This document shows, in pieces, positions 34,321-62,517 of a stretch of DNA of 64,000 nucleotides; the first letter of the stretch is position 1; each line of letters begins with the position of its first letter. Where the stretch lies: the NCBI GenBank assembly GCA_017533485.1, contig JAFXIC010000046.1, forward strand, positions 216 to 64,215, given 5' to 3'. A model generated the notes under the pieces. It saw nothing but the letters and a program-made list of their open reading frames with translations. It made no database searches and had not been told where the DNA came from. Both the position numbers and the translations under genes were made by a program. This DNA comes from Oscillospiraceae bacterium. GTDB taxonomy: Bacteria; Bacillota; Clostridia; Oscillospirales; Ruminococcaceae.

Positions 34321-34368
34321 TTTGCTTTAATCGTTACGTCATAAGCATTTTTAGTTGAATGAAAATTT

Positions 34369-34396
34369 GAATGCCCCCTTTTAAAAGGGGGCATTC
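34369..34396 (+). terminator. perfect hairpin after pilA1 (attenuating terminator or stabiliser)
   Basis: GAATGCCCCCTTTT / AAAAGGGGGCATTC 28-nt palindrome; only a weak U-tract downstream. Confidence 0.5.
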
Positions 34397-34425
34397 CTTG
34401 TATACAGGGAATATTGTGAGGGTAT

Positions 34426-34965
34426 ATGATGAAGAAAAAGGGTTTTACTTTAATTGAGCTGATCGTTGTCATTGCGATCATTGGCGTACTTGCTGCAATG
34501 CTTGTACCTGCCATGATGGGATATATTTCGAAATCTAAGATTATGAATAGCAACGGAGCTGCCAATTCTGTTTTAAAGGGCGCAAACATTGCAATTGTTG
34601 AGCTTTCTAACCGCGATTATAATTATTCGCTTCTGGATGGCAATATTACAGTGGACGCTGCGGATATTGTCGCGTGTAAGGACGTTATAATGTCCTCCGT
34701 TTCCAGAGATTCTACGAACGTGAATGAGCTGAGATCCATTCTCTATGCCAGTATTTATCGGTATTTTACTGATGTCGAGGAGCTTGATGAGGTTTCCTTC
34801 CAAATTAGCAATGGAGAATGTGTTGGTGTCGGTGTATTGAAGGGAAGATACCCCGGTTCCGCGCCGATTGCTATCGGCATTGAAGATTTTCAGCAGGTCG
34901 AAGAAACCGGTACTTGGGATTCGGATGTTGCGCTCGATTACGCAACAGGCACTACCACTCCGTAA
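34426..34965 (+). CDS. second type IV pilin paralog
   Basis: MMKKKG|FTLIELIVVIAIIGVLAAMLVPAMMGY. The first ~37 aa are near-identical to PilA1; the C-terminal globular part is unrelated by eye; 179 aa. Confidence 0.88.
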   Translation: MMKKKGFTLIELIVVIAIIGVLAAMLVPAMMGYISKSKIMNSNGAANSVLKGANIAIVELSNRDYNYSLLDGNITVDAADIVACKDVIMSSVSRDSTNVNELRSILYASIYRYFTDVEELDEVSFQISNGECVGVGVLKGRYPGSAPIAIGIEDFQQVEETGTWDSDVALDYATGTTTP

Positions 34966-37274: not shown

Positions 37275-39248
37275 TCAGCCGCGCTGCGGTTCGAGTGTGT
37301 CAATCAGCTTTGCGATATATCGGAGAATCATTGCCGCATCACCGGCAGAAATTCCTGCATCCGAATCCACGTTTGCATTTACCGCGCCGCGTGCAGTCAG
37401 CGAAACGGAAGTATCTTCTGCGGCAATTCTCGAAACGAGAATGACATCAGAAATATCGACTTCTCCGCTGCAGTCTGCATCGCCGTACAGGATACGACCC
37501 AGGCCGGTATCAATCGTCGTGGTGACCGTCGTGGTTGTGGTGGTAGCGGAAGAAGTTGTCGTGGAGGTTGTGGTTGTTGTTTTCGGTGTGGTGCTGGTCG
37601 TTGTTGTAGTGGTTGTGGATGTTGTAGAAGTGGTGGAGGTTGTAGAAGTAGTGGAGGTTGTAGAAGTAGTGGATGTTGTAGAAGTGGTAGACGTTGTAGA
37701 TGTTGTGGTAACCGTCTGCGGCGGCTTTGTATCACCGGGTGTGCTGCCCTTTTTGCCGCCGTCCAAGTTACTGCCCTCGCTGTTTGCATAGCTTGCATAA
37801 TACTCAGAGAGGGAAATACCATTCTTTCCGAGTGCTTTCTGATGGTCAAGACCGATATACTTTCCGGATGTGGAAGTCTGCCAGAGCGACTTTTCCATCA
37901 GTCCGTATTTCTCGCTGTCCCATGTCAGGAAGTCATGGCTCAGAAGACCGCCGGTATCACCGGAGTTCGGATTTAAGCACCAGAAGGTATGGTTGATATG
38001 GTTTGCGATCATATAATCACGCAGCAGCTCCATCCATTTCTGGTTCTTGCCGCCGTCCATATGGCCGCCCCACTCGCCGATCAGCAGCGGTGCAATATCC
38101 TCCTCTACGATATATGACCATGTGTCATACCAGTAGTCATCGAGGAGCGTCTGGGTTGTAAAGTCCTTATCGAACCATGTCTGTGCATAGACGGACGGGC
38201 CGTAGTCATGCGGAGAGTAGACGATCTGGCTGGTACCGCTTGCGGGCTGGATCGGGTAATCGCGGACACCGCGGAGATTACCGCCCCACCATGCGCCGTA
38301 CCACGGGGAAACATCCGGACTTGCCTGCCAGATATCGGGCGTATCATAGGTATAGCCCTTTTCGGTCTTGGGGTACTGTTCGACGCCCTCGACGAAGATC
38401 AGTGCATTCGGGTTGACGGCGAGAATGGCGTCTGCGGCACGCGTTGCGGCATATGCCCAGTTATTCTCATCCTTTGTGCCGTCCCACTTTGCGATATTCG
38501 TCGGGCAGGTCGGATCGAATTCACGTTTTCCGTGCGGTTCGTTCTTCAGGTCATAGCCGATCAGCGTATCATCATTCGCATATTTTTCCGCAAGCCATGC
38601 CAGCGTTTCGATCCAGACTTCTGTTGTCACGCCGGCTTTTCCGTACCAGAGCTCATAGTTATGACCGGAGTTGTCGGAATGCGGGCTGTGGATGTCGATA
38701 AACGCCTTGACACCGTATTTCTTGCACTTCTGCATGATGATGTCGAAGATTTCCATGCTGTTCTTGATGGTCTTTCCGTCTGCTTCACAAAAGTCGGGGT
38801 TGATGTTGACATAGGTACCGGCGGGTGTAATACTGCCGTCCTCGTTTACAACATCTTCCGGTGGAGAAAGTCCTGCCTGTACCGAGCTGACAGGATTGGG
38901 GCTTCCTTTCATCCACGAAACCAGAAGCTCCGAGGAGATGGGGAAGCGGATGACATTGATGCCGTGATCCGCAACGCCTTCCAGGAACTTATCCACGTCT
39001 GCGGTATAAAGACCGTGGGCACAGTTCTCCGTACAGTTGAAGCCGAACCAGTTTGCACCGGTCAGCCATACTTCATTGCCGTCCTTGTCATACAGACGGC
39101 TGCCCTTGGCATGGAGCCAGTCGTCGTTGCAGTCATCGACTGCCGCAACGCTGTCCAGTCCGGGCGCGAGGTCTGCGCTCAGCACTCCCGTCGTGCCGAG
39201 TGCGAGGGCTGCCGCCAGACTGAGCGACAGCACGCGCTTGTGTTTCAT
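37275..39248 (-). CDS. GH5 endoglucanase paralog with (Thr-Thr-Ser)n linker and C-terminal dockerin
   Basis: ORF trimmed to ATG 39248 (MKHKRVLSLSLAAALALG signal peptide). YDLKNEPHG and LLIGEWGGH; dockerin GDADCSGEVDISD...NANVDSDAGISAGD. Confidence 0.88.
   Translation of the reverse strand: MKHKRVLSLSLAAALALGTTGVLSADLAPGLDSVAAVDDCNDDWLHAKGSRLYDKDGNEVWLTGANWFGFNCTENCAHGLYTADVDKFLEGVADHGINVIRFPISSELLVSWMKGSPNPVSSVQAGLSPPEDVVNEDGSITPAGTYVNINPDFCEADGKTIKNSMEIFDIIMQKCKKYGVKAFIDIHSPHSDNSGHNYELWYGKAGVTTEVWIETLAWLAEKYANDDTLIGYDLKNEPHGKREFDPTCPTNIAKWDGTKDENNWAYAATRAADAILAVNPNALIFVEGVEQYPKTEKGYTYDTPDIWQASPDVSPWYGAWWGGNLRGVRDYPIQPASGTSQIVYSPHDYGPSVYAQTWFDKDFTTQTLLDDYWYDTWSYIVEEDIAPLLIGEWGGHMDGGKNQKWMELLRDYMIANHINHTFWCLNPNSGDTGGLLSHDFLTWDSEKYGLMEKSLWQTSTSGKYIGLDHQKALGKNGISLSEYYASYANSEGSNLDGGKKGSTPGDTKPPQTVTTTSTTSTTSTTSTTSTTSTTSTTSTTSTTSTTTTTTTSTTPKTTTTTSTTTSSATTTTTTVTTTIDTGLGRILYGDADCSGEVDISDVILVSRIAAEDTSVSLTARGAVNANVDSDAGISAGDAAMILRYIAKLIDTLEPQRG
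37615..37704 (-). repeat. five tandem 18-bp units encoding the TTS/TST linker
   Basis: Plus-strand unit GTGGAGGTTGTAGAAGTA is exact at 37633-37650 and 37651-37668, with degenerate copies on both sides. Confidence 0.8.
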
Positions 39249-39374
39249 TGAGATTACCCCCTCTTTATGATGCTCCGGTGCTGCGTGCAGCCGGAGTATA
39301 TTCCGAAAGCCGTATGGGATATGTTTTCGGTACAGCATATGACAGACGGCTTTTTTGGAAACAAAGTGGAATGA

Positions 39375-40449: not shown

Positions 40450-40476
40450 GAAACTTGTATGTTCCGGTACAAGAAA
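40450..40476 (+). promoter_or_regulatory. 27-nt conserved element, copy A (GAAACTTGTAT-N8-ACAAGAAA)
   Basis: GAAACTTGTATGTTCCGGTACAAGAAA, 58 nt upstream of ATG 40534. The second copy lies at 50436-50462. Confidence 0.5.
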
Positions 40477-40533
40477 TCACAGGTTTTTACCTATGAATGG
40501 AGGGCGATTTGAAATGAAAGGAGATTTTGCTGC

Positions 40534-40998
40534 ATGAATCTTGAGATTCGGATTGCGGAGAAGACGGCGGCTTTACAGGGGAGTCCGCAGATTATCTGCG
40601 GCAACAGCGACTATACGCTGACCTTTTTCTTCGACAGCGAGTGGGATGCATATCCCGTAAAAACCGCACGATTTGTGTATTTCCAAAACGGAATCGCAGT
40701 GCATCAGGATGTTCTCTTCGAGGGTGATACGGTGACGGTACCGGTGCTGCATGGCGTCTATGAGGTTGCAGTTGGCGTATATGCCGGCGATATCCATACG
40801 ACCACACCGGCCCGTATCAGCTGTGTACCGTCAATTACCTGCGGCAGCTCGCCGCATGACGCACCGTCACAGGATGTGTATGATCAGCTGATGGCATACT
40901 TAGCGAGCATCCGCAACGGCAATTTCGTGGATGCACAGCGTCTTGCCGCTGTCTGCACAGGGAAGACGGTAATTTCAATTGCACAACAGGAGGAATGA
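40534..40998 (+). CDS. hypothetical beta-rich protein, possibly phage baseplate/fibre accessory (BppU-N-like)
   Basis: RBS AAAGGAG. Pattern ...VTVPVLHGVYEVAVGVYAGDIHTTTPARISCVPSI resembles Ig-like phage tail accessory domains; weak. Confidence 0.3.
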   Translation: MNLEIRIAEKTAALQGSPQIICGNSDYTLTFFFDSEWDAYPVKTARFVYFQNGIAVHQDVLFEGDTVTVPVLHGVYEVAVGVYAGDIHTTTPARISCVPSITCGSSPHDAPSQDVYDQLMAYLASIRNGNFVDAQRLAAVCTGKTVISIAQQEE

Positions 40999-41001: not shown

Positions 41002-41661
41002 ATGGCAATGACAAAGGAATATATCGGATATCATTTTGACGCGGACTTTCTGGCGTGGCTTCGCAGTCATCTTATCCCCGAATATGTGGACAGCATCGAG
41101 GTCAGCGCGGACGGTACTTCCTATCAGATGCTGCGCGGCGGCAATCAGATTGCGAAAATTACAGCGACGGATTGGACGCTCTATCCCACATCCCAAACGA
41201 CGCCAAGCCAGTCGGCAATGGCAAATGTCGGCAGTCAGGTTTATGGGTATGCCGGTCAGAATGCGATCGCAATCTGTTACCGCGGTTATGGCAGTGCGGC
41301 GAAAAACAATCAGAGTCTTGTGCTTTTTACGCATGATAACCATGGCGGGGCTGTCGTACTTATGGCGATGCGGCTGTCCGAGAATTCTACCGGCGCGACA
41401 TTGTTCTCTCAGACAGCTACGACATACCTCATGCGCTTACAGACTTCGGAAATCAATACCGTCACATCGCTTCAATTGAAGTATAATTCCGGTTCTGTGA
41501 GCTGTCTTTGTCCGTTTGTGCTCAATACCGAGGAGCCGGAAATTTTTTATACGCCCGATGTCTTCTGGTGTCCGGTCTATCAGCATTCTGCGATCGGTAC
41601 GCTGCTGATTGACGGCGCACGGTATTTTACGTTCGGACCATGGATGGTGAAGGACGCGTAA
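41002..41661 (+). CDS. hypothetical protein (partner of 40534 gene)
   Basis: Starts 4 nt after the previous stop; 219 aa; no recognisable motif. Confidence 0.4.
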   Translation: MAMTKEYIGYHFDADFLAWLRSHLIPEYVDSIEVSADGTSYQMLRGGNQIAKITATDWTLYPTSQTTPSQSAMANVGSQVYGYAGQNAIAICYRGYGSAAKNNQSLVLFTHDNHGGAVVLMAMRLSENSTGATLFSQTATTYLMRLQTSEINTVTSLQLKYNSGSVSCLCPFVLNTEEPEIFYTPDVFWCPVYQHSAIGTLLIDGARYFTFGPWMVKDA

Positions 41662-41667
41662 CGGCAT

Positions 41668-41709
41668 GAAAAAACGCGGCTGCATGAAATTTGCAGCCGC
41701 GTTTTTTTA
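41668..41709. terminator. bidirectional intrinsic terminator
   Basis: ACGCGGCTGCA (41673-41683) / TGCAGCCGCGT (41691-41701), flanked by A6 and T7 runs. Confidence 0.85.
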
Positions 41710-41727
41710 TATGGATCAGGATTCCGC

Positions 41728-48780: not shown

Positions 48781-48799
48781 TCCTCTATTCCCATATATA

Positions 48800-49463
48800 C
48801 AAAAACAGAGGGAAAGCCTTCCTGCTTTCCCTCATGTTCGTTATTCAATTGTAAAGCGCCCAAAATGACTCTATATCAGACCGCAAGGGTCGTAAAGGGA
48901 GCATCCGCTCCAAAAGGGGATGTTTTTTCTTTTATTTCCCATTACGCCATTGACACGAGAGTTTTGTCATTCTTTTTTCGGGTGCGGCAAAATCTATCTG
49001 CCGCGTCTGATGCACTCTGCATTTGGCCCCTACATATCGCAAACCCATTGGTCCACGGTTCTTACTGTGCGGCTTCCATATCGGAATGCAAGTTGCATCG
49101 CGGCGAAATCAAATCAACCGTTCAGTCGATCCTTGCGTTATGCACAGAAGAAGCTGTTTTCGAGCCTGCATCAATGGACGGGACGCTTGTTTCCGTATCC
49201 ATGGGACTCACACAACCTTTCCGATTCAGTTTTTCGGCGGAGGGATCTGCTTTCGTGCCGTCTGCAATACAGCGCAGACTCTGATGCGAGACTGCGGAGG
49301 CAGCCGGGAGAAACGCCGCCGGGATTCTTCAGGATTCCATGCAAACCTTGCGTGAATCATCAGCGCAACGGATGCTGCGTTGAATCCGAAGCATAGTATA
49401 CGCTGATACCCTAATTCACGTATTCCCCTTCGGATCTGTGAGGGATGTCTTGCTGTATCCTGT
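48800..49463 (-). ncRNA. candidate ~660-nt structured non-coding RNA (family unassigned)
   Basis: Consensus promoter immediately upstream and a hairpin plus U-tract at the 3' end. No RBS-preceded ORF on either strand, and the minus strand is full of stops. Includes a 10-bp long-range helix 49327-49337 / 49382-49391 enclosing smaller hairpins. Confidence 0.4.
48808..48833. terminator. bidirectional hairpin terminator, with the better U-tract on the minus strand
   Basis: GAGGGAAAGC (48808-48817) / GCTTTCCCTC (48824-48833). The minus strand continues TGTTTTTGT; the plus strand continues ATGTTCGTT. Confidence 0.7.
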
Positions 49464-49469
49464 GATTGT

Positions 49470-49498
49470 ATTATAGCACATATTCCTACAAATGTCAA
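49470..49498 (-). promoter_or_regulatory. consensus sigma-A promoter driving the candidate ncRNA
   Basis: Minus strand TTGACA (49498-49493), 17-nt spacer, TGC-TATAAT (49475-49470). Confidence 0.7.
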
Positions 49499-49543
49499 GA
49501 GGTTTTTGAAAAATTTTATGAGAAATTTTCAAAAGATTAGGGC

Positions 49544-49572
49544 TTGACATTTCGAAAAAAATAAGGTACAAT
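49544..49572 (+). promoter_or_regulatory. sigma-A promoter of DUF1292 gene
   Basis: TTGACA (49544-49549), 17-nt spacer, TACAAT (49567-49572). Confidence 0.7.
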
Positions 49573-49646
49573 ATACCCAGCGAATATCATGTTCGCAATA
49601 ATCAGCCCAAAGCTTCCCCGCTTTGGCAGAACGGAGTTAAGATACT

Positions 49647-50009: not shown

Positions 50010-50121
50010 TACACCGACAAGCGCTGACACGCTTTGGCAAAATCTCTCAGGAAATTCCGGTTGATTTTCTGGAGCGATGGGTGTATACTACTATCATCAG
50101 CCTTTTCATTTGATTTCTGCC

Positions 50122-50150
50122 TTGTTCGACCAAGTCCGATATGATATAAT
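50122..50150 (+). promoter_or_regulatory. sigma-A promoter with extended -10
   Basis: TTGTTC (50122-50127), 17-nt spacer, TGA-TATAAT (50145-50150). Confidence 0.55.
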
Positions 50151-50156
50151 CCAACA

Positions 50157-50362
50157 CTTCATATCAGGGAATCTTGGCTCTGCGCGTGGATTGCAGACCT
50201 CCCGCTTTCTCCGGTTCCGGAGCGATGCGGACGAAGGGAGCGTGAAAGGCGCAGGCGGATACCCACCTGCTTTGTGCGGGTTTTATGCGTCGGACGACGG
50301 CAAGGCGGAGCTTGAATATTTACGCGGATGCGGCAACTCGTTTTGCTGCATCCGCTTTTTTG
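50157..50362 (+). ncRNA. ~200-nt promoter-to-terminator unit (candidate sRNA or first leader segment of the phage-like operon)
   Basis: No RBS-preceded ORF. Internal helices include CTCCC..GGGAG (50209-50250 region) and GCAGG..CCTGC. Ends at terminator 50324-50362. Confidence 0.3.
50324..50362 (+). terminator. intrinsic terminator T1
   Basis: 13-bp arms 50324-50336 / 50343-50355 (one G-U pair) followed by T6. Confidence 0.8.
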
Positions 50363-50435: not shown

Positions 50436-50462
50436 GAAACTTGTATCCCGGAATACAAGAAA
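50436..50462 (+). promoter_or_regulatory. 27-nt conserved element, copy B
   Basis: GAAACTTGTATCCCGGAATACAAGAAA; 20 of 27 positions match copy A at 40450-40476, with identical length and flanks. An extra inverted half-site TCCGGATACAAGTT sits at 50376-50389. Confidence 0.5.
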
Positions 50463-50504
50463 ACGCCGCTTTTGCCATATGGGTGAAGGCGGCGTTTCTT
50501 CTCC
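50462..50504 (+). terminator. terminator-like hairpin T2 in the terS leader
   Basis: AACGCCGCT / GGCGGCGTT arms followed by TTCTTCTCC; about 70 nt upstream of the terS ATG. Confidence 0.5.
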
Positions 50505-50572: not shown

Positions 50573-51127
50573 ATGACGGATACTGCGCGTTCCGAAACAC
50601 GGATTGCAGCACTGCGGCGGAAGAATTTCTGTCGCTACTACCTGCTGCTCGGCAACCCGACCGAAGCGGCGCTCCAAGCCGGTTTTGCACCGGAGAAGGC
50701 TGCGGAGGAAGCCCTCGCGCTCCTCCAGAATCACAGCTGTCGTGCGTACCTCGCAAAACTTGCCGCACAGCCCGCACTTCCGATTCAGACGCTTGTTCTT
50801 TCGGGGCTGAGCCGGCTTGCGTTCGGTTCGGCAAAGGATGCCGTAAAACTTGTGTTCTCGGAAGAAATGCCCTCGGACGAAATGCTTTCGCGTCTCGACC
50901 TTTTTCAGGTTGCTGAGCTGAAGCGCGTCAAGGGCGGCGGCGTTGAAATAAAACTCTTCGACCGCCAGAAAGCGCTCGAACGGCTGCTGGAATGTGCGAT
51001 GTCGGCAGATTCTTCTGCTGCCGCAAATGCGCTCCTTTCCGCCCTGAGCATTCCGCAGGAGGAGGCGAATGCACTTGACGATGATGAAGCCGACGCGCTT
51101 CTCCCAAAAACAACGGCGCGTTCTTAA
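50573..51127 (+). CDS. phage terminase small subunit (XtmA/Terminase_2-like)
   Basis: ATG 50573 after GAAAGGTGG. RYYLLLGNPTEAALQAGFAPEKAAEEALALLQN is an HTH-like motif typical of this family; overlaps terL. Confidence 0.7.
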   Translation: MTDTARSETRIAALRRKNFCRYYLLLGNPTEAALQAGFAPEKAAEEALALLQNHSCRAYLAKLAAQPALPIQTLVLSGLSRLAFGSAKDAVKLVFSEEMPSDEMLSRLDLFQVAELKRVKGGGVEIKLFDRQKALERLLECAMSADSSAAANALLSALSIPQEEANALDDDEADALLPKTTARS

Positions 51128-52346
51128 CTGGTGGATGCAGCCCGAAACAATGCACTATGACGCGATTATCTGTGACGGTGCGATTCGTTCGGGAAAAACC
51201 ACTGCGCTTGCGCTCGGATTTGTCATCTGGGGCTGTACGAGATTTGACCGCCAGAGCTTTGCGCTTTGCGGAAAAACCGTCACCTCGCTCCGCCGCAATC
51301 TTGTGACACCCCTCATCGCACAACTCTCTCTCCTTGGCTTTCAGGTCGAGGAAAAGGTCAGCAAGGCTTATCTCGATATCTCCTTCGGCAACCATCGGAA
51401 TCGGTTTTACTGTTTCGGCGGTAAGGACGAGGGCTCGGCTGCCCTGATTCAGGGGATTACGCTGGCTGGAGTTCTGATGGATGAGGTGGCGCTGATGCCG
51501 AAGTCCTTCGTCGAACAAGCACTCGCTCGTTGTTCTGTACCGCGCTCAAAGATGTGGTTTTCCTGTAACCCCGATAAGCCGTCCCATTGGTTTTATCGGG
51601 AATGGATTCTGATGGCGAAGCAGAAAAACGCCCTCTATCTGCATTTCACCATGGAAGACAATGCAGCGTTGACACCTGAAATCCGTGCGCGGTATGAACG
51701 GATGTATGACGGCGCATTTTATGACCGCTATGTGAAGGGGCTATGGGTGGCATCACAGGGGCTTGTCTATCCGATGTTCTCGCCGAGTAAGCATATCGCA
51801 GAACCGCCTGCACCCTGCGAACGGTATGTGATTTCCTGCGACTATGGTACAATGAACCCGACATCCTTCGGACTCTGGGGACTCAGCGAAGGCTGCTGGT
51901 ACCGGTTTGCGGAATCCTATTATGACGCTCGGAAAGCAGGTGTGCCGAAAACCGACGAGGAGCATTATCTTGCCCTCGAAGCACTCGCAAAAGACTATCC
52001 GATTGAACAGATTGTGATCGACCCTTCGGCTGCAAGCTTTATCGCCTGTATCCGAAAACACGGACGCTATGTGGTGGTACCGGCAAAGAATGATGTGCTC
52101 GCCGGAATCCATCGCGTTGCAGACGCGATTCGTGCGGAGAAAATCCGCATCGGTGCGGCGTGTCAGGATGCGCTGCGTGAATTCTCCCTCTATGCATGGG
52201 ATGCGCACGCGGGCTCGGACGCGCCTGTGAAGGAACATGACCACGCGATGGACGATATCCGCTATTTCGTGAGTACGGTTCTGGATTCTGAGGAGCGCAC
52301 GGGCTTTTATGTCACCTCGCTCTCCCGCACCGATGCAGCAAACTGA
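51069..52346 (+). CDS. phage terminase large subunit (PBSX/XtmB family)
   Basis: RBS AGGAGGAGG. Walker A ICDGAIRSGKTTAL; Walker B-like GVLMDEV; C-terminal nuclease-type acidic motifs (ISCDYG, HDHAMDDIRY). Confidence 0.85.
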   Translation: MHLTMMKPTRFSQKQRRVLNWWMQPETMHYDAIICDGAIRSGKTTALALGFVIWGCTRFDRQSFALCGKTVTSLRRNLVTPLIAQLSLLGFQVEEKVSKAYLDISFGNHRNRFYCFGGKDEGSAALIQGITLAGVLMDEVALMPKSFVEQALARCSVPRSKMWFSCNPDKPSHWFYREWILMAKQKNALYLHFTMEDNAALTPEIRARYERMYDGAFYDRYVKGLWVASQGLVYPMFSPSKHIAEPPAPCERYVISCDYGTMNPTSFGLWGLSEGCWYRFAESYYDARKAGVPKTDEEHYLALEALAKDYPIEQIVIDPSAASFIACIRKHGRYVVVPAKNDVLAGIHRVADAIRAEKIRIGAACQDALREFSLYAWDAHAGSDAPVKEHDHAMDDIRYFVSTVLDSEERTGFYVTSLSRTDAAN

Positions 52347-52362
52347 AAGGAGGTTTTTGATT

Positions 52363-53559
52363 TTGCGATTCCCCATTCCTCCCAAGAAACAGCGTGCAGC
52401 AGACTTACCGTCGGTTCCGATGCTGCTGGCGCCCAAACGCACCGCGCCAACGCATACGGCAGAAAATCTGCCGCTGCGGACGCCGCCGCCTCCGTCACCT
52501 GCGGAGTGGAAGCTCTATGACGCGCTGCGGTATGCGGTGCCGGTCGTGGACGCTGCACTCCATAAGATTGTGCGGCTCTGCGGCGGATTCCGGCTGACGG
52601 CTCAGACCCCCGAAGCACAGGCGGTTCTGGATGCGTTTTCGGAGAATGTTCCGGTGAATGCGGCAGGCTGTTCCCTCCAGTCTTTTGCGGATCAGATGCT
52701 CGATGCACTGCTGACCTACGGAAATGCAGTCGGTGAGCTGATTTGCGACGCACAGAGCGGTATGCCGCAGGGACTTGTGACTGCGCATCCGTCCATGCTC
52801 GAAATTTGTCCCGATACGCCGGTTTCCTGTCGGTATTATCTCCGCGGCACGGATGAAGCAAAGCGTCAGCCGCTTGCACATCCCGAACGAATTCTGTTCG
52901 CGGCACTTTCTCCTCCGCCCTCCGGCATTTATGGTGTATCGGTATTGCGCGGTCTTCCGGCACTTTCCAAAATCCTGCTTCGGATTTACGAATGTGTCGG
53001 TCAGAACTATGACCGCGCCGGAAATGTCCGCTATGCGGTTACCTATCACCCCGATGCGAATGCCGCAGCGTTCGCACAGTCCCACGCAAAGGAAATCAGT
53101 GATGCCTGGAAACATGGCATTCAGGCGGCTTCCTATGGCGAGGTTCAGGACTTTGTTGCGGTCGGCGATATCGACATCAAGGTGATTGGTGCCGAAAACC
53201 AGCTCTTCGATACGAATGTGCCGGTGCGCCAGCTCCTGGAGCAGATCGTCTCGAAACTCTCTATTCCGCCGTTCCTGCTGGGATTTTCGTGGTCCACAAC
53301 AGAACGGATGTCTACCCAGCAGGCAGATATTCTCACTTCCGAGCTGGAATATTTCCGCAGACTCCTTTCCCCGATTCTCCGGAAAATCGGAAATGCCGTT
53401 CTCCATAGCGCCGGCTTTTCCGAATCGGTTCAGGTCGCTTGGGACAGCATCAATCTTCAGGATGAAACGGAGCTTGCGGAAGCACGCCTGAAAAATGCGC
53501 AGGCAAAGCAAATCGAACAGCAGCTGGATGCGTCCGGCTGTCAGTCCCCCGAATCATGA
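52363..53559 (+). CDS. phage portal protein (probable)
   Basis: Position immediately after terL; ~400 aa. Start uncertain: TTG 52363 lies 9 nt after GAAAGGAGG, and ATG 52333/52309 are alternatives. Confidence 0.6.
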   Translation: MRFPIPPKKQRAADLPSVPMLLAPKRTAPTHTAENLPLRTPPPPSPAEWKLYDALRYAVPVVDAALHKIVRLCGGFRLTAQTPEAQAVLDAFSENVPVNAAGCSLQSFADQMLDALLTYGNAVGELICDAQSGMPQGLVTAHPSMLEICPDTPVSCRYYLRGTDEAKRQPLAHPERILFAALSPPPSGIYGVSVLRGLPALSKILLRIYECVGQNYDRAGNVRYAVTYHPDANAAAFAQSHAKEISDAWKHGIQAASYGEVQDFVAVGDIDIKVIGAENQLFDTNVPVRQLLEQIVSKLSIPPFLLGFSWSTTERMSTQQADILTSELEYFRRLLSPILRKIGNAVLHSAGFSESVQVAWDSINLQDETELAEARLKNAQAKQIEQQLDASGCQSPES

Positions 53560-53575
53560 AAGGAGCAGTAGGATT

Positions 53576-54544
53576 ATGTACGATTCTGTAAAACTCGAAA
53601 AAGGTATGTACCATCTCGCCAATCAGTCTTTTCTGGATGCGCTGGAGCACGCCGACCCGTCCGAACAGTATCTGGGTACGCCGCTTGCATCGCTGGACGC
53701 GTTCGAGCGTCAGCTCAAGCGTTTCGATATCCACCTCAGCGGTGAACACTGCGATAAGGTCGAGAAATTCTTCTCCACCACCGAGAGCGCAGTCCTTTTC
53801 CCTGAATTCGTCCGCAGAGCCGTGAAGCAGGGTATGGAGGAATCCATTCTGCCGGAGCTTTGTGCGGCGGTCACGAAAACCAATGGCACTTCCTATAAGG
53901 GCTTTGCCATCGACGAGGCGGACGGCGCATATTCCGAGACGGTCGAACAGGGTGAGTCGCTGAAAATCACTGCGCTGACCGAGGCGGAGACTGCCATCGT
54001 CCTCGAAAAGTATGGCAGAGTCATTACCGCATCCTATGAGATCGTCCGTCAGCAGCGTATTGATGTGTTCGCGGTTATGCTGCGCGCCATCGGTCATAAG
54101 CTTGCGGGGGCGATCGCCGGTGCGGCACTCGCGAAGCTCGGTACTGCGCTGACGCCCCTTACCCTCAGCGGCAGTACCCTCGCATATGCAGATCTTGCGG
54201 CACTGTACGGCGAGTTCTCTGACTATGATATGACCACCGTGATCGCCTCTCCGAAGAATGTTGCCGCAATCCTCGCGATGGATGAGATGGCTGACCATAC
54301 AACCGATGCGGACGGTACGATCCGTCTTCCGTTCGGCGCAAAGCTCCTCAAGGATTCTTCGCTTTCCGATACAACCATTATCGGTATCGCAAAGGATTTC
54401 GCACTCGAATGCGTAACCGGTTCGGATGTGCTCCTCGAAACCGACCAGCTGATTAACTGTCAGCTCGATCGGATCGCAGTATCTGTGCGTGTGGGCTTCC
54501 AGCCGCTGATGGAGGGTGCCGCAGCTTCGATCGACTGGACATAA
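53576..54544 (+). CDS. HK97-fold major capsid protein (probable)
   Basis: ATG 53576 after AAAGGAG; 322 aa. Pattern LEKYGRVITASYEIVRQQRIDVFAVMLRAIGHKLA and the C-terminal beta-rich region resemble Phage_capsid family members. Followed by a G/C-rich hairpin. Confidence 0.55.
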   Translation: MYDSVKLEKGMYHLANQSFLDALEHADPSEQYLGTPLASLDAFERQLKRFDIHLSGEHCDKVEKFFSTTESAVLFPEFVRRAVKQGMEESILPELCAAVTKTNGTSYKGFAIDEADGAYSETVEQGESLKITALTEAETAIVLEKYGRVITASYEIVRQQRIDVFAVMLRAIGHKLAGAIAGAALAKLGTALTPLTLSGSTLAYADLAALYGEFSDYDMTTVIASPKNVAAILAMDEMADHTTDADGTIRLPFGAKLLKDSSLSDTTIIGIAKDFALECVTGSDVLLETDQLINCQLDRIAVSVRVGFQPLMEGAAASIDWT

Positions 54545-54653
54545 TACCGCAGGGGTGCGGGGGGGACCTCGGATTGGGTTCCCCCCATCCGCTCTCCCCG
54601 ATTTTTCCGGCTTTTTTATGCCTTGAATATCATCCGAACGATATGGAGGGATT

Positions 54654-55595
54654 ATGATGCAAAAGAATGATTCCGAGATGCTTGCGGCACTGAATCACTT
54701 CACGCGCCGTGCGCATACGCTCGAAGAGGTCTATCTCTTTGACCTGATTCTCTGTGACAATGAAATTGACCGTGACGGGGATTGTTTCTCCGAACAGGCA
54801 CTCAAAGCGATGCAGAAGCTGTTTGTCGGCGTCACGGGGATCTTCGACCATAACTTAAAATCCGGCAATCAGACTGCCCGTATTTTCCGCACAGAGGTTC
54901 TGACGGATGCTTCGCGCCGGACAAAGACCGGTCAGCCCTATCAGTATCTGAAGGCAAATGCCTATATGGTGCGGACGAACGCGAATGCCGACCTCATCCG
55001 CGAGATTGATGCCGGAATCAAAAAGGAGGCCAGTATCTCCTGTGCCGCGTCCGAACAGATCTGTTCGATTTGCGGTACGAACCGGCTGAAACAGCACTGT
55101 GGGCATATCAAGGGCCGCTCGTATCAGGGTGCGCTCTGCTATACCACACTCGACGGGATTTCCGATGCATACGAATGGAGCTTCGTCGCGGTACCGGCAC
55201 AAAAATATGCCGGCGTTACGAAAACACTCGGCGGAAGCACAGCCGCACAGCCCGAAACCAAGATGCTGGAACGTGCGCTGGAGGCTGCGAGCGGTACACT
55301 CGATAAGCTGACGGACGCGCTGAGAAAGGATGTCATCCGACTCTGTTACCGCGGCGGAGAAACTGCCTGTGCGAAGGCGCTGGCGGATTCCACGATTCAT
55401 ATGGACGCGGAAGCCCTCTTAAAGCTGCGCCAGAGTCTTCTGATCGGCGCACAGGCACAGTCAGAGCGTGAAGCCGCCGCCGCAAAGGCGAACTCTCAGC
55501 TCTATCCGCAGAAAAATGCTGCCTCCGCATCCGAACCGCTGCCTGCAATGGACGAATTCCGGATGCACCGCAAAAAGGAAGGGGACGCGAGATGA
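54654..55595 (+). CDS. XkdF-like prohead protease with C-terminal scaffold-like coiled coil (probable)
   Basis: CDNEIDRDGDCFSEQALKAMQKLF...GIFDHN resembles the XkdF/S78-type protease N-terminus. The C-terminal ~120 aa are Ala/Glu/Leu-rich. Confidence 0.5.
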   Translation: MMQKNDSEMLAALNHFTRRAHTLEEVYLFDLILCDNEIDRDGDCFSEQALKAMQKLFVGVTGIFDHNLKSGNQTARIFRTEVLTDASRRTKTGQPYQYLKANAYMVRTNANADLIREIDAGIKKEASISCAASEQICSICGTNRLKQHCGHIKGRSYQGALCYTTLDGISDAYEWSFVAVPAQKYAGVTKTLGGSTAAQPETKMLERALEAASGTLDKLTDALRKDVIRLCYRGGETACAKALADSTIHMDAEALLKLRQSLLIGAQAQSEREAAAAKANSQLYPQKNAASASEPLPAMDEFRMHRKKEGDAR

Positions 55596-55945
55596 ATACA
55601 GCACTGGCAATGCGATTGTTTGTGTTATTCGCCGGTCTTTCCGATGGTACCGAGTATCAGGCGCTCCTGGATGCGGCGGCAGAGGAGGTAAGCGGCGAGC
55701 TTTTGCCGGAGGCGGATGCGAATGACCGCCGCCTCAGCTATTATTGTGCCGCAATCGCCCATCTGCGCTATGTCCAGATGCTTGCCGCACGCAGCGAGCT
55801 GTCCCATACCTATGCCGGTACGGTTGCAAAACAAAAGGACGCAACCGTACCCTGTGGATTTGCGGAGCGGCTGGTCTGTCAGTACCGCAATGCGGCGGCT
55901 GATCTCTTAAAAGACCGCTGCTTTGTCTTTACGGGCATCGCCTGA
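55592..55945 (+). CDS. head-tail connector (gp6-like) candidate
   Basis: 117 aa; ATGA overlap with the previous gene; size and position fit, motif recognition is weak. Confidence 0.4.
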   Translation: MNTALAMRLFVLFAGLSDGTEYQALLDAAAEEVSGELLPEADANDRRLSYYCAAIAHLRYVQMLAARSELSHTYAGTVAKQKDATVPCGFAERLVCQYRNAAADLLKDRCFVFTGIA

Positions 55946-55991
55946 ATCCACGGACGAGAAATTATCTGAACAAAGGGGGGGACAGCCGATT

Positions 55992-56426
55992 ATGGCATAT
56001 TACGCAACATTTCTGAATCAGATCGTGACCATGCTCCGGGAACGCGGTGTGGACGCAGACCTCGAATATCCGCGCAAGTCACTTTCTGTCCATGCATCCG
56101 GACGCTACCTGACCATCGGGCTGGAGTCCGCGGAATATCAGCCCGCACTCGCATACCGGGATGGGCTTGCATTCCCCGTGACACTGCATCTGCGCCTGCG
56201 GATGCACCAGAATCCGACGAAGAATGTACAGGCACTTTCTGCACTTTATGAAGCGGTTGTGCTGCCGGCATTCGTGGATGCGGGGTATGATCTGCGGAGC
56301 ATGAAGCTCCATAGCCCCGAATATGACAGGTCGCTGGATCGAATGGTGATGCGGGCGGACTGTATGCTGCATGGCTATGTGGTGAAAACGGCATCAGCGG
56401 CGGAAACGGAGCGTGAGGAAGTATGA
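55992..56426 (+). CDS. phage head-completion / hypothetical protein
   Basis: ATG 55992 after AAGGGGGGG; 144 aa; call based on synteny only. Confidence 0.4.
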   Translation: MAYYATFLNQIVTMLRERGVDADLEYPRKSLSVHASGRYLTIGLESAEYQPALAYRDGLAFPVTLHLRLRMHQNPTKNVQALSALYEAVVLPAFVDAGYDLRSMKLHSPEYDRSLDRMVMRADCMLHGYVVKTASAAETEREEV

Positions 56427-56809
56427 CGAATCTGATGACAGCGGAAGATAAGCTGCGGCTGAAGCTGGGGACGCTGGAGCTGACGGCGGACAGCTACCGT
56501 ATGGAGCTGCACCGTCCGACACGCCGACAGACGCTTGTGGACGGACGCTTCCGGGAAACGATGCTGGATGTCGAACCATGCGTGCTGCGGATTGAGAGCC
56601 GTGTGATTTCCGCTGATGCTGCCGCGCTGAAAGCGGCGATCCGGACGGCAATCCATGAGAATACGGTCTTTTCGTTTTCCTTCGACAGAATGCGCTTTAC
56701 GGAGATGACGATCCGGGATATTCTTTTCTGCCGGTCGGAAAACCAACAGTATATGACCTTGACGCTGACGCTCGGCGGAACATTCTCCGGAGAGGAGGAT
56801 GATGTGTGA
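56423..56809 (+). CDS. phage-associated hypothetical protein
   Basis: ATGA overlap at both ends; 128 aa. Confidence 0.4.
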   Translation: MTNLMTAEDKLRLKLGTLELTADSYRMELHRPTRRQTLVDGRFRETMLDVEPCVLRIESRVISADAAALKAAIRTAIHENTVFSFSFDRMRFTEMTIRDILFCRSENQQYMTLTLTLGGTFSGEEDDV

Positions 56810-57741
56810 TGCCGACAGCAGTCCTGACGCTTTATGCGGCAGACGGAAGTTTCGTGACGCAAACAGATTGTGCGGCATTTTCTCTTTTAAAGGAGCGGTA
56901 TCTGCCGTATGATACATTCCATGCGGTGTATTGTCTGACGGAGGAACGTCTGCCGCAGCCGCCGGTGCGTGCGGTCTTTACACTGGATGGTGTGAAGCTG
57001 CACGACGGGATTGTACGCAGCGTAAAAGCGGAACGCCGGAATCATCTCACACAGCTGACGCTCACCTCGCGCGGTTATACGGAATCGCTGATGCAGAATC
57101 AGATGGTACCGGGGCTGTATACGGATGTCACACTCGATTCACTGATGACAACCTACGCGCTGCCGCATATCACATACGAAAGCGGATTGTCCGCGTCAAA
57201 TTATATCTATGTCAAAGCAAATACGGCGATGTGGGATGCACTGTCCGCGTTTTGCTATAAGTATAACCGTTCTCTGCCGTATGTGACGCGCTGTAATCAT
57301 CTGCGGCTGAGCGCGAAACCGGAGGATGCGGCAATCCTTCTGCCTGCGGAAGGCTTGCTGCGGTATTCCGAGGACGGGGACGCTTCAACCATCATCAGCC
57401 GTATCGACATGGCAGATATCGACGGAACCTACGGGCAGTTCACCTGTACCAACGAAAAAGCTGCGGAACGTCAGATTGTTCGTGTGAAACAGATGCTGTT
57501 TGACCGCCAGTTTCTCTATCAGCCCGAGGACGCACTGCGTTACCGGATCGCGTACAGCAATCGGAAGCTGATCGGAAAAACAGTTTCCTACTGCGGCTAC
57601 TGCGGCGAGGATATCGAGGACATGGTGGAGCTTTCGGGCGTGCTTCGCGGTCATGTCAGCCGGATACTGCTTCGGGGAAACGAAAACGGGCTCGAAACAA
57701 CGGATACACTCTATTTCGACAGCTTCTGCAATGTCGGCTGA
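56806..57741 (+). CDS. phage-associated protein, possibly XkdQ/gpD-like hub
   Basis: 311 aa. Pattern FTLDGVKLHDGIVRSV......LTLTSRGYTESL loosely resembles XkdQ/late-control-D proteins; weak. Confidence 0.35.
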   Translation: MMPTAVLTLYAADGSFVTQTDCAAFSLLKERYLPYDTFHAVYCLTEERLPQPPVRAVFTLDGVKLHDGIVRSVKAERRNHLTQLTLTSRGYTESLMQNQMVPGLYTDVTLDSLMTTYALPHITYESGLSASNYIYVKANTAMWDALSAFCYKYNRSLPYVTRCNHLRLSAKPEDAAILLPAEGLLRYSEDGDASTIISRIDMADIDGTYGQFTCTNEKAAERQIVRVKQMLFDRQFLYQPEDALRYRIAYSNRKLIGKTVSYCGYCGEDIEDMVELSGVLRGHVSRILLRGNENGLETTDTLYFDSFCNVG

Positions 57742-57754: not shown

Positions 57755-57804
57755 ATCTGCCTTTTCCGGGAACACATACGCGGAGAAGGCAGATTGTTTT
57801 TTTT
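57755..57804 (+). terminator. intrinsic terminator closing the phage-like module
   Basis: ATCTGCCTT (57755-57763) / AAGGCAGAT (57786-57794) followed by TGTTTTTTTT. Confidence 0.8.
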
Positions 57805-57940: not shown

Positions 57941-58822
57941 ATGTTTCAATCGAGCGATTGCGGATATGATGACGCAGCATTGACTGCGCGCGGAGAATCT
58001 TTGGATGCGCTGTTACAGGAAGCGCATATCTCGGAACAGGATAAACAGAATGCCTTAATGGAGTATCTGGAGCTGCTGCACAGCAAGCGTGCCGCAAAAG
58101 TCGGTGTAGAATTTGCCGAGCGGCTGATGGATCGTGTGTATCAGGCGTTTCTTGCACATCCGACCTCGGAGGTGGCAGTAGACCTGCTGTATAACTGTCT
58201 GCTGGTTCAGCAGTTCCATGCGATGAATTTCGACCAATGGCGGTCGCATCCCTCAATTGTGAAGTGTGAAAATGCGCTGGCGTCGCTCGAAGCAGACGGC
58301 AGATTATCGGACTGTTTCCGTTTTTGTCAGGAGACTGCGGCGACCTATGCTGACGCAAGATTCTGGCCGGAGGCACTGCGTTATGCGACGCGTGCGCACG
58401 GTTACAGCAAGCAGCTCATCCAGAAAAAGATTACGGTTCTGGAAAATGACGAGATGCTGGATTTGCGGGATACCGCCTGTCTGATCTGCGAGTATGCGCT
58501 GCATACGGCAGAGGGGCTGACGGAGCGGCTGGAAGCAATGCTGCAGTCGGATCTGGGCGCAGAGAATTTCGCGTTCGTCCTTCAGGAAGCACAGGATAAT
58601 GTGGATGATATTATCGTGGATCCCGTGGAGTTCACACCCGAATATCTTGCCATCCGGTATGAGCTGGAAGAAAAGATTGATGACGCGCTGGAGCATCAGC
58701 GTGGGTATTATGAATATTGTAAGGATTATTGGATGGCAAAGCGGCTGATTCTTCGTTCGGAGTTCGGTATTTCATGGAAATCGCCTGCCGCGCTGAATCC
58801 GAACATGGATTTTGACGGATAA
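57941..58822 (+). CDS. hypothetical cytoplasmic alpha-helical protein
   Basis: ATG 57941, 7 nt after GGAGG; 293 aa; no recognisable motif. Confidence 0.5.
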   Translation: MFQSSDCGYDDAALTARGESLDALLQEAHISEQDKQNALMEYLELLHSKRAAKVGVEFAERLMDRVYQAFLAHPTSEVAVDLLYNCLLVQQFHAMNFDQWRSHPSIVKCENALASLEADGRLSDCFRFCQETAATYADARFWPEALRYATRAHGYSKQLIQKKITVLENDEMLDLRDTACLICEYALHTAEGLTERLEAMLQSDLGAENFAFVLQEAQDNVDDIIVDPVEFTPEYLAIRYELEEKIDDALEHQRGYYEYCKDYWMAKRLILRSEFGISWKSPAALNPNMDFDG

Positions 58823-60744: not shown

Positions 60745-62517
60745 TCAGTCTTCTTCGACCGTGCGGATTGCGAGTACGTCGAGGTCAGCCTTGTTGACGG
60801 GCGACGGACAGCCGCTCATCAGTTCTCTTGCGTTCTGAACCTTCGGGAACGCGACAACATCGCGGAGGCTGTCTGCCTCGGCGAGGGTCATTGCCAGGCG
60901 GTCGAGTCCGATGCCAAGGCCGCCGTGCGGCGGTGCACCGTACTGATAAGCCTGAACGAGGAAGCCGAATTTCGCTTCGATTTCTTCCTCGGTGAGACCG
61001 AGCGATTCGAACATTTTCTGCTGCAATTCATAGTCTGTGATACGGATAGAGCCGGAGCAGAGCTCGGTGCCGTTGAGTACGAGGTCATATGCTTTTGCAA
61101 AGACCTTTTCGGGTGCGGAATCGAGATATCGGAGCGAGTCGTCCATCGGCATGGTAAACGGATGATGCATCGCGAGCCATTCGCCGGTTTCCTCGTCCTG
61201 TTCAAAGAACGGGAATTCGGTAATCCAGAGGAAGTTGAATGTGCCGGCGGGAATGAGGTCAAGGCGTTTTGCGACCTGTGTACGGAGCGCACCGAGGACA
61301 GGGAGTGTGACGGAATTCTTATCTGCGATGATGAGGACAACGTCACCCTGCTGTGCGCCGACCGCATTGAGGATCGCGGAAAGTTCACCGTCCTTGAGGA
61401 ATTTTCCGAACGAACAGGCAGGTTCGGCATCTACCCAGCGGACATAAGCCATACCCTTTGCGCCGATGCCCTTCACCATTTCGGTGAGCTTGTCGATTTC
61501 CTTACGGGTATAGGTTTTTGCGGCGTCCTTGGCGACGATGCAGCGGACAGACCCGCCGTCAGCGAGTGCGTTTGCGAATACAGGGAATTCCGAATCCTTC
61601 ACCAGTGCAGAAAGATCCTGAAGTTCCATACCGAAGCGGGTATCGGGCTTATCCGAGCCATAACGGTTCATCGCTTCGGTATAGGTCAGTCTCGGAATCG
61701 GCATTGCGAGTTCCTTGCCCATAACATCCTTCCAGAGACGGGAGAGGAAGCCCTCGGTGATATCGAGGATATCGTCTACGTCCACAAAGGACATTTCGAG
61801 GTCGATCTGTGTAAATTCCGGCTGGCGGTCTGCGCGCAGGTCTTCGTCACGGAAACAGCGTGCGAGCTGGATATAGCGGTCGTAGCCTGCGACCATCAGG
61901 AGCTGTTTATAGATCTGGGGGGACTGGGGGAGCGCATAGAATTCGCCGTGATGGACGCGGGAGGGGACGAGATAATCTCTTGCGCCTTCGGGCGTGGATT
62001 TCATCATCATCGGGGTTTCGATTTCGAGGAAGCCGTTCTCGTAGAAATATTCTCTTGCGCACATCGCAATCTTATGACGGAGGATGAGATTCTGCTGGAG
62101 CGGTGCACGGCGGAGATCGAGATAGCGGTATTTGAGCCGCAGTTCTTCATTGACCTTTGTTTCGGGGGTGATTTCGAAGGGTGGTGTTTTTGCTTTTGCG
62201 AGGATGCGAAGTTCTGTGACATAGATTTCGACATGACCGGTCGGGATTTTATCATTTTTGCTTTCGCGTTCGCGCACTTCGCCCTGTGCGAGAACGACAT
62301 ATTCGCTCTTACAGGAAGCTGCCTTTTCGAACACACTGCGGTCGGTGGTATCATCAAAGGTAAGCTGAACGACGCCGGTGCGGTCGCGCAGTACGATAAA
62401 GATAATACCGCCCTTATCGCGGATGGTATCACAGAAACCGCCGACTGTGACTGTCTGACCGGCGGTGAGGACTTCGCCGCAGTAGTGCGTGCGTTTTAAG
62501 CCTTGCATATTGTCCAT
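60745..62517 (-). CDS. aspS: aspartyl-tRNA synthetase, bacterial type (paralog 2)
   Basis: ORF trimmed to ATG 62517 (GGAGG 10 nt upstream). MDNMQGLKRTHYCGEV...; FTQIDLEMSF; GAPPHGGLGIGLDRL; 590 aa; no T-box leader. Confidence 0.9.
   Translation of the reverse strand: MDNMQGLKRTHYCGEVLTAGQTVTVGGFCDTIRDKGGIIFIVLRDRTGVVQLTFDDTTDRSVFEKAASCKSEYVVLAQGEVRERESKNDKIPTGHVEIYVTELRILAKAKTPPFEITPETKVNEELRLKYRYLDLRRAPLQQNLILRHKIAMCAREYFYENGFLEIETPMMMKSTPEGARDYLVPSRVHHGEFYALPQSPQIYKQLLMVAGYDRYIQLARCFRDEDLRADRQPEFTQIDLEMSFVDVDDILDITEGFLSRLWKDVMGKELAMPIPRLTYTEAMNRYGSDKPDTRFGMELQDLSALVKDSEFPVFANALADGGSVRCIVAKDAAKTYTRKEIDKLTEMVKGIGAKGMAYVRWVDAEPACSFGKFLKDGELSAILNAVGAQQGDVVLIIADKNSVTLPVLGALRTQVAKRLDLIPAGTFNFLWITEFPFFEQDEETGEWLAMHHPFTMPMDDSLRYLDSAPEKVFAKAYDLVLNGTELCSGSIRITDYELQQKMFESLGLTEEEIEAKFGFLVQAYQYGAPPHGGLGIGLDRLAMTLAEADSLRDVVAFPKVQNARELMSGCPSPVNKADLDVLAIRTVEED

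Follow-up and report, generated by a model that had tools for sequence, protein, structure and literature searches.

Among the ways in which bacterial DNA becomes encapsidated in virus-like particles from human faeces, gene transfer agent (GTA)-like packaging of short chromosomal fragments of sharply defined size is the most frequent, and it is concentrated in the Ruminococcaceae and Oscillospiraceae (PMC12946183). One such system has been identified, FpGTA of Faecalibacterium prausnitzii, which is encoded by two unlinked operons, I (10.5 kb) and II (5.5 kb), forms 40-nm particles of tail-less or podovirus-like appearance that hold 8.4-8.9 kb of DNA, and has a small terminase subunit (TerS) whose DNA-binding domain has been lost (Borodovich et al., Nat Commun 2026, PMC12946183). 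FpGTA is near-ubiquitous in its genus, was reported absent from Gemmiger and Subdoligranulum, and has not been reported for Ruminococcus; for Ruminococcus callidus, 4.6-kb packaging was described but not traced to a gene cluster (PMC12946183). A preprint on murine Pelethomonas saw GTA-like coverage and, alongside it, nothing more than 'an unknown MGE resembling a capsid-forming satellite' (MGE, mobile genetic element; July 2026, bioRxiv 10.64898/2026.07.08.737213). The subject of the present analysis is a module of nine phage-derived genes at 50573-57741 in a 64-kb stretch of Oscillospiraceae DNA (contig JAFXIC010000046.1; hereafter the window), considered together with a two-gene operon (locus II) elsewhere in the window. 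The module is probably locus I of a domesticated, chromosomally fixed, multi-locus GTA-like particle system derived from a PBSX-type myovirus. Literature searches turned up no description of the module, of its hub and tube proteins, of where it occurs or of its cis-element.

All nine genes are encoded on the forward strand, with tight or overlapping junctions that include ATGA and TGATG start/stop overlaps, and inspection of the open reading frames (ORFs) found no broken frame. The first gene (50573-51127, +) encodes a 184-aa TerS that matches PF03592 (E=1.6e-15; profile positions 5-127 of 141) and phrog_51 (E=1.6e-16). It is followed by the gene for a 425-aa large terminase subunit (TerL; 51069-52346, +) of the PBSX family, with Terminase_6N/Terminase_3 domains, matches to NCBIfam TIGR01547 (E=1.9e-51) and phrog_2 (E=5e-51), and GKT as its Walker A motif. 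The 398-aa portal protein (52363-53559, +) matches phrog_30703 (E=1.7e-118), PF04860 being recorded for the called product; a longer ORF starts at 52309. The 322-aa major capsid protein (53576-54544, +) matches PF25209 (E=2.7e-12) and phrog_3922 (E=7.6e-60); among the NCBIfam models it gave a weak HK97 match (E=0.0099) and no match to the N4-gp56 family. The fifth gene product, g5 (313 aa; 54654-55595, +), matches phrog_16951 (E=1.2e-88), a family of unknown function. The remaining genes encode g6 (117 aa; 55592-55945, +), g7 (144 aa; 55992-56426, +), g8 (128 aa; 56423-56809, +) and g9 (310 aa; 56809-57741, +), the last starting at the ATG at 56809 of the called version rather than at an alternative GTG. 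Searches of Pfam, PHROG and NCBIfam gave no match for g6 to g9, and profiles of g5, g6, g7 and g9 gave none against PDB sequences. The operon is closed by an intrinsic terminator (57755-57804, +), in which a hairpin at 57755-57794 (-30.2 kcal/mol, z=-5.6) is followed by U8.

Much of this agrees with a first-pass annotation, which had described nine co-directional intact genes ending at a strong terminator, TerS and TerL with a GKT Walker A motif, ATGA/GTGATG overlaps, and flanking housekeeping genes (DUF1292 upstream, the aspartyl-tRNA synthetase AspRS downstream). Its statement that flanking tRNA genes and obvious att repeats are missing also stands, in that the 64-kb window contains no tRNA gene and att-like direct repeats around the module were chance-level matches only. 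Two of its details need correction. The order it gave, portal-protease-capsid, is actually portal, capsid, g5, and no hidden Markov model confirmed its label 'XkdF-like' for g5.

The N-terminal 190 aa of g5 are strongly conserved and carry a zinc-ribbon-like CxxC..CxH motif, while the C-terminal 100 aa are variable; D39, D41, H66 and S176 are invariant in 95 of 95 sequences. There was no Pfam match for this protein. In related loci its gene lies between those for the portal and capsid proteins, the usual position of a protease/scaffold gene, and g5 can be regarded as a putative prohead protease with a scaffold-like C-terminal region joined to it.

For g6 and g7, a neck role (head completion in the case of g6) is suggested by position only, and searches with families of 34-37 members gave nothing consistent. 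g6 is conserved in 92 loci, including three phage-like contigs in which its gene lies directly 3' of the capsid gene (L001-L003; such numbers label related loci in this analysis), and g7 was found by profile in 89 loci. In about 6-7 loci (L044, L048, L080, L085, L089, L094, L096), g7 and g8 are fused into one ORF (about 240-270 aa) recognised by both profiles, and this natural fusion in some species suggests that the two proteins interact or act together.

The two last proteins resemble tail components. For g8, a word-indexed search returned only the protein of the same species, and the 30 homologues used as input for an AlphaFold2 (AF2) model came from an exhaustive search. In Foldseek comparisons with PDB, this model (pLDDT 93.4) matched the tube-initiator of the diffocin baseplate (8v3w_T), the baseplate of phage E217 (8eon_A), the neck of RcGTA (6toa_G), the monocin tube and Hcp, with E=5e-5 to 1e-3 and template-modelling (TM) scores of 0.6-0.69. 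By its predicted structure g8 is a tail-tube-fold protein of the tube, tube-initiator or distal-tail-protein class. The model of g9, built from an alignment of 36 homologues (pLDDT 94.5, pTM 0.91), matched the Neisseria Mu-like tail protein 3d37, Mu gp44 (1wru) and MuSo2 (3cdd) with E of about 1e-16 and TM of about 0.7, as well as the hubs of diffocin, pyocin and the type VI secretion protein VgrG; the matches in BFVD were a '43 kDa tail protein', 'Mu gpP' and 'protein D'. The modelled fold identifies g9 as a baseplate hub of the gp27/Mu gp44/P2 gpD type, as had been anticipated for the last gene (XkdQ/gpD-like). The operon thus encodes a head, g6 and g7 as small proteins at the neck position, a single tube-fold protein and one hub, and lacks sheath, tape measure, chaperones, baseplate wedges and fibres. 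The earlier description of the module as tail-less is inaccurate because two tail-derived genes, for the tube-fold protein and the hub, are integral to it, and the predicted particle would be more correctly described as 'stub-tailed'.

This gene content allows a comparison with described systems. The module shares with FpGTA its occurrence in Gram-positive gut Clostridia and a set of TerS, TerL, portal, scaffold and capsid genes plus a few unknowns, with no replication or integration genes, and the second, unlinked operon of FpGTA, which contains baseplate, fibre and receptor-binding genes, can be compared to locus II. However, FpGTA has a capsid protein of the N4-gp56 family and a Prp-type protease gene, whereas the module has a PF25209/phrog_3922 capsid protein, a PBSX-family TerL and g5, and no Prp-like gene was found in it. 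Judged by these annotated family names, the absence of an N4-gp56 capsid and a Prp gene suggests a different lineage of similar design. The two systems also differ in size, operon I of FpGTA having 10 ORFs in 10.5 kb and the module 9 ORFs in 7.2 kb, and in that operon II of FpGTA has a holin and an endolysin, whereas locus II is limited to two genes, of which one is related to fibres or tail tips, and has no lysis function.

PBSX resembles the module in its PBSX-family TerL (TIGR01547) and XkdQ/gpD-type hub, as well as in being chromosomally fixed and non-replicating. Sheath, tape-measure, baseplate-wedge, fibre, lysis and xre/xpf genes are absent in and next to the module, however, and PBSX extends over about 28 kb compared to about 7 kb for the module. 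RcGTA of Alphaproteobacteria likewise combines a head-to-tail cluster with unlinked fibre loci, is vertically inherited under purifying selection and has no integration or replication genes; the common regulator that controls its loci has a proposed counterpart here. In contrast to the module, RcGTA has a full siphovirus-type tail (tube, tape measure, distal tail protein, hub, megatron), of which only the tube fold is common to both, and it belongs to an unrelated lineage with the regulator GafA and other cis-elements. PBSX produces particles, as the present system would, and packaging and transfer have been shown for RcGTA.

Ancestry from a PBSX-type phage is indicated by two observations. 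TerL belongs to the PBSX family, and a related contig (L002) contains homologous head genes and then runs on into a tail sheath gene and a LysM/hub gene. Head genes on 'Bacteriophage sp.' contigs from faecal viromes, L002 among them, are 40-55% identical to those of the window. The module is therefore best seen as a reduced descendant of a PBSX-type myovirus, in line with the likeness to the head half of PBSX-like elements that had been noted in the first pass.

To define the distribution of the module, one genome per GTDB species was scanned with a g5 alignment as query. Relatives of g5 were found in at least 594 genomes, and the best 80 loci were taken further, with genes called by iterated profiles built from the window proteins. 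These 80 loci are nearly all from Ruminococcus or Oscillospiraceae; carriers include R. flavefaciens MC2020, Ruminococcus sp. CAG:254 and Porcipelethomonas ammoniilytica (L058). The order TerS-TerL-portal-capsid-g5-g6-g7-g8-g9 was found in 59 of the 80 and the order with g5 and capsid swapped (TerS-TerL-portal-g5-capsid-g6-g7-g8-g9) in 9 more; in most of the remaining loci, contig ends cut the module. The span of the module is constant at about 6.9-7.3 kb. In L047 (3642-10843), every gene is kept in the order TerS-TerL-portal-g6-g7-g8-g9-capsid-g5, indicating that the capsid/g5 pair can relocate as a unit. A few loci are defective, with a 61-aa capsid fragment in L076 and both portal and capsid genes missing in L095. 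Homologues of g9 formed 38 clusters at 90% identity, ranged from 31 to 99% identity to g9 and were nearly all full-length (about 300-320 aa).

The nine genes were found in identical order in divergent metagenome-assembled genomes (MAGs) across three unrelated chromosomal settings. Four contexts were annotated with Pfam, and within 10 kb these contained housekeeping genes only, with no integrase, replication or excision genes. Clustering of flanking ORFs across the 80 loci gave no family that recurs other than through lineage synteny, an example of the latter being FeoA, found downstream in 14 loci. No sheath, tape-measure or lysis genes adjoin the module in the window or in the related nine-gene loci. 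In IMG/VR, relatives of g9 occur on only ten short contigs, each of which is the module with cell genes at the edges, and no complete phage with this g7-g8-g9 set was found there or in a phage collection. A hub-less, 8-gene sister form is present in L083 (an Acutalibacteraceae MAG, 4689-10830) and in L001, where it consists of TerS, TerL, portal, g5, capsid, g6 and two small genes. L001 is a 46.7-kb contig deposited from a human faecal virome as 'Bacteriophage sp.' (MT835508.1); it is really bacterial chromosome, with cellular genes for an Rnf complex, NrdD, ABC exporters and MCRA hydratase.

Selection on the module was assessed by comparing the species of the window (L004) with a syntenic species (L012), for which the synonymous rate dS is 1.2-2.0 and thus saturated. 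Synteny between species with dS above 1 indicates vertical inheritance. The ratio of non-synonymous to synonymous rates (dN/dS) was 0.06-0.09 from TerS to g6, 0.13 for g7, 0.34 for g8 and 0.16 for g9, and 0.02-0.12 for the neighbouring aspS, hrcA, grpE, dnaK and DUF1292 genes. Between two strains of the window's species, 27 synonymous and 8 non-synonymous differences were counted (pN/pS, the corresponding polymorphism ratio, 0.09). In TerL, Walker A K43, Walker B D138/E139 and the nuclease residues D258/D395 are conserved in 79-81 of 81 loci, and the strict conservation of these catalytic residues suggests that DNA packaging itself is maintained by selection. Taken together, these comparisons indicate phage-derived structural and packaging genes that are chromosomally fixed, vertically inherited and under purifying selection, as is characteristic of GTAs; the lack of replication, integration and excision genes is a further trait of that class.

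A further line of evidence comes from a cis-element that the module shares with locus II. The shared 27-nt element that had been pointed out near 40450 is real and corresponds to an 18-bp palindrome plus flanks. The element GAAACTTGTAT..TACAAGAAA occurs at 40451-40478 and at 50437-50464. Upstream of TerS the palindrome is TTGTATCCCGGAATACAA (50441-50458, +), with GAAAC..GAAAA flanks that extend to 50437-50464, and at locus II it is TTGTATGTTCCGGTACAA (40455-40472, +), with GAAAC..GAAA flanks that span 40451-40478. The window palindrome reads TTGTAT-N6-ATACAA and the family consensus TTGCAC-N6-GTGCAA, both described by the strict pattern TTGYAY-N6-RTRCAA. In 1.36 Mb of related loci this pattern occurs 39 times, and 35 of the 39 occurrences, in 35 of 67 loci, lie within 600 nt before the TerS end. 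Within the 64-kb window the copy at 40455 is the sole other strict match, in the same orientation and 10 kb away. Two strict matches, L023:2442 (before a cation ATPase gene) and L069:16492 (inside a cellulase gene), were taken as chance. The palindrome arms co-vary at three positions across species (0 of 500 shuffles reached the observed score), which fits a dimeric protein co-evolving with its putative site, though it may also reflect a hairpin; RNAalifold recovered the palindrome alone and no RNA structure downstream of it.

A conserved box (GTGAAAGG) lies at a fixed distance of 19-20 nt downstream of TTGYAY-N6-RTRCAA. It reads ATATGGGTGAAGG upstream of TerS (50477-50489, +; family consensus TAT(T/A)AGTGAAAGG) and TATGAATGGAGGG at locus II (40492-40504, +), and its positions T48, G49 and G53 are kept in at least 90% of 38 sites in both ungapped and MAFFT alignments. 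No sigma-70 type promoter was detected between the 6S RNA terminator and TerS or before locus II. Palindrome and box may together form a promoter/activator element; if the box were -10-like, the palindrome centre would lie at about -41, the position of a class II activator. The consensus of sigma-54 promoters is TGGCAC-N5-TTGCA, and a reading of the palindrome as a sigma-54 promoter was rejected on account of a mismatch in the GG dinucleotide and in the spacing. The box is overlapped by a terminator-like leader hairpin (50464-50494, +; -27.7 kcal/mol, z=-4.8), after which UUUCUUCU follows. This hairpin is kept in the sister species L012 (about 2441-2475) via changes on both stem sides; it is lineage-specific, not being conserved in most other species, and could be an attenuator or a coincidence.

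Locus II is a discrete two-gene operon behind the palindrome copy at 40455. Its gene 1 (154 aa; 40534-40998, +) appears to be phage-derived and fibre/tail-tip-anchor-like, and gene 2 (219 aa; 41002-41661, +), of unknown function and without a family match, is always paired with gene 1; a strong terminator follows at 41666-41710 (-30.5 kcal/mol). The gene 1 family comprises 111 clusters. In PHROG searches, 10 of 40 members matched phrog_19695 (best E=1.2e-7) and seven matched phrog_25979, and in one homologue the shared N-terminal domain is followed by PF24243 ('Phage tail tip domain'); the family profile gave no match against PDB sequences. The gene pair is conserved in L018, L099 and L100, and the element lies about 75 nt upstream of it in L099, which is syntenic, and in L100, which has a different context and one mismatch to the strict pattern. 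These matches suggest that the pair encodes fibre or host-recognition proteins.

The presence of the same element before the TerS operon and before locus II leads to the proposal that both operons are switched on together. An unlinked regulator would act on the palindrome and box upstream of TerS, after which g5 (as protease/scaffold), the capsid protein and the portal would build a prohead that TerS and TerL would fill with DNA. The portal would be closed by g6 and g7, and a g8 ring capped by a g9 trimer would form a very short, podovirus-looking stub tail without sheath, tape measure or long tube. Fibres or host recognition would probably be supplied by the locus II proteins, and release would need lysis functions encoded elsewhere. 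Particle assembly, the origin of the packaged DNA and its transfer to recipients are what we infer from this arrangement. Among the four explanations originally listed for the module, the domesticated GTA-like system with split loci gains from the fixed gene content, the purifying selection and the shared cis-element before a conserved, unlinked fibre-like operon; a capsid-forming satellite and a recent deletion are contradicted by the comparative data, and a tail-less particle is at odds with g8 and g9.

Several observations weigh against a GTA-like system of this kind. In assembly CAYMOJ01, the locus II pair (L018, 8798-11136) occurs without the palindrome, and the link between the two loci is thus not universal. 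This assembly also carries the nine-gene module (L024), and its gene pair adjoins a divergent gene for an HTH-Peptidase_S24 (CI/LexA-like) repressor and a short Cro-like ORF; this neighbourhood may hint at how some species activate the system. Searching the 64-kb window gave no holin, endolysin or regulator. The palindrome could be an RNA or DNA hairpin or a packaging site instead of an operator. A tube-fold protein without a tape measure could still polymerise, the stub tail being a prediction, and the roles assigned to g5, g6 and g7 are putative. TerS keeps a full Terminase_2 domain including its N-terminal part, unlike the FpGTA TerS, which has lost its DNA-binding domain, and packaging by the module could therefore be sequence-specific.

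This last point also bears on the alternative that the particles are maintained by the host for a role other than gene transfer, which we regard as unlikely. Such a role could be PBSX-like killing or defence, in which capsids soak up degraded DNA while hub and fibres hit competitors, or an abortive response to phage; it could also be site-specific packaging with the palindromes as pac sites. Apart from the complete Terminase_2 domain, such a role is consistent with the PBSX-type ancestry, as PBSX packages DNA and does not deliver it (PMC12946183, discussion), with the two equally oriented copies of the palindrome, 10 kb from each other, and with the tail-tip genes g8 and g9 evolving fastest, as expected of parts that interact with a target. 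On the other hand, killing by PBSX needs a contractile tail, and a sheath gene adjoins the module in no locus examined. The box at a fixed distance speaks for a transcriptional role of the palindrome, as does the placement immediately before ribosome-binding sites, and the strict terminase conservation suggests that DNA packaging is the selected activity.

A satellite of the type of capsid-forming phage-inducible chromosomal islands (cf-PICIs), which would form small capsids of its own, package itself and use tails borrowed from a helper phage, is considerably less probable still. The cf-PICIs (Alqurainy et al. 2023) have a compact TerS-TerL-portal-protease-capsid-connector set and no long tail, and the TerS, TerL, portal, capsid, protease and connector genes of the module show the same likeness to a packaging module. 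The hub-less 8-gene variant in L001 and L083 is in keeping with a satellite, and the element in Pelethomonas, which is very probably the nine-gene module (Porcipelethomonas carrying it), has been called 'resembling a capsid-forming phage satellite' (bioRxiv 10.64898/2026.07.08.737213). However, cf-PICIs are mobile, use helper tails and have integrase, regulatory and replication modules, whereas no integrase, alpA, primase/replicase or att repeats were found within 10 kb in any annotated context of the module, and the syntenic position across species with dS above 1 points to vertical inheritance. Its own tube-fold and hub proteins would be expected to block rather than accept a helper tail, and a putatively co-regulated fibre-like locus lies elsewhere on the chromosome.

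A functionless, decaying prophage remnant or recent deletion derivative, to which the lack of adjoining tail, lysis and regulatory genes, the surrounding housekeeping genes and the few defective loci (L076, L095) might point, is hardly credible given nine genes intact in about 68 species-level genomes, low dN/dS (0.06-0.34) and pN/pS (0.09), conserved catalytic residues and cis-regulatory element, and no related full prophage with the g7-g8-g9 set in IMG/VR or the phage collection; the description of the module as intact and not decaying is upheld by the same values.

The favoured reading of the module as part of a GTA-like system can be extended to a broader proposal, which is offered tentatively. 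Together, the nine-gene module and the co-regulated fibre-like locus might be the genetic basis of GTA-like short-fragment packaging in gut and rumen Ruminococcus/Oscillospiraceae, such as the 4.6-kb packaging in R. callidus, and would then represent an independently domesticated GTA family derived from PBSX-type myoviruses, with a tail reduced to a single tube-fold ring and a hub, a range of hundreds of species and a dedicated palindrome-binding regulator. Circumstantial support for packaging of host DNA in small pieces comes from the R. callidus fragments, from the reports on Oscillospiraceae, and from the deposition of a chromosomal contig with a related module (L001) out of a faecal virome. 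Only the FpGTA cluster has so far been tied to GTA-like packaging in the gut, and the widely conserved module is a strong candidate for other producers. The question can be tested directly in cultured carriers, namely R. flavefaciens MC2020 and Porcipelethomonas ammoniilytica, and the conserved palindrome offers a way to locate the regulator and the other loci. With nine genes and no tape measure, the architecture is to our knowledge among the smallest known that combine head and tail, and could inform work on tail reduction and on engineering minimal DNA-packaging particles. Modules of this type that are deposited or counted as 'phages' or 'satellites' in viromes (e.g., MT835508) distort virome statistics.

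The module is preceded by a 6S RNA (SsrS) gene (50111-50315, +; Rfam RF00013, 68.8 bits) that has its own terminator (50324-50355) and lies about 120 nt upstream of the module palindrome; the first-pass annotation had missed it. This adjacency is probably incidental because the contexts of the module in other species are unrelated. Further upstream are a PHP-domain gene and the DUF1292 gene; the 860 nt between these two (48781-49646) contained no called gene in matching metagenome contigs, no Rfam match and implausible ORFs only. Downstream of the module are a 293-aa gene, the AspRS gene (-) and hrcA-grpE-dnaK-dnaJ. The 293-aa gene (57941-58822) was considered as a part of the module and rejected, as it has its own strong sigma-70 promoter and occurs in the closest relatives only. 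Two aspartyl-tRNA synthetase genes are present in the window (12388-14268, +, and 60745-62517, -), both with the Pfam domains tRNA-synt_2 and GAD.

Elsewhere, the window consists of ordinary chromosomal DNA from a cellulolytic, Ruminococcus-like organism, and includes a NuoE/F hydrogenase-like cluster. Two GH5-like cellulase paralogues (35037-37154 and 37275-39338, -) have long Thr/Ser-rich linkers and C-terminal dockerin-like repeats, and such dockerin-bearing cellulases indicate a cellulosomal Ruminococcus-like species. A type IV pilus/type II secretion system (T2SS)-like cluster at about 20584-34965 encodes a PilC-like T2SSF protein, PilM, four unknown proteins (297-985 aa), a prepilin peptidase, two T2SSE ATPases and an N-methyl pilin-like protein (34426-34965); this cluster could serve adhesion to cellulose or DNA uptake.

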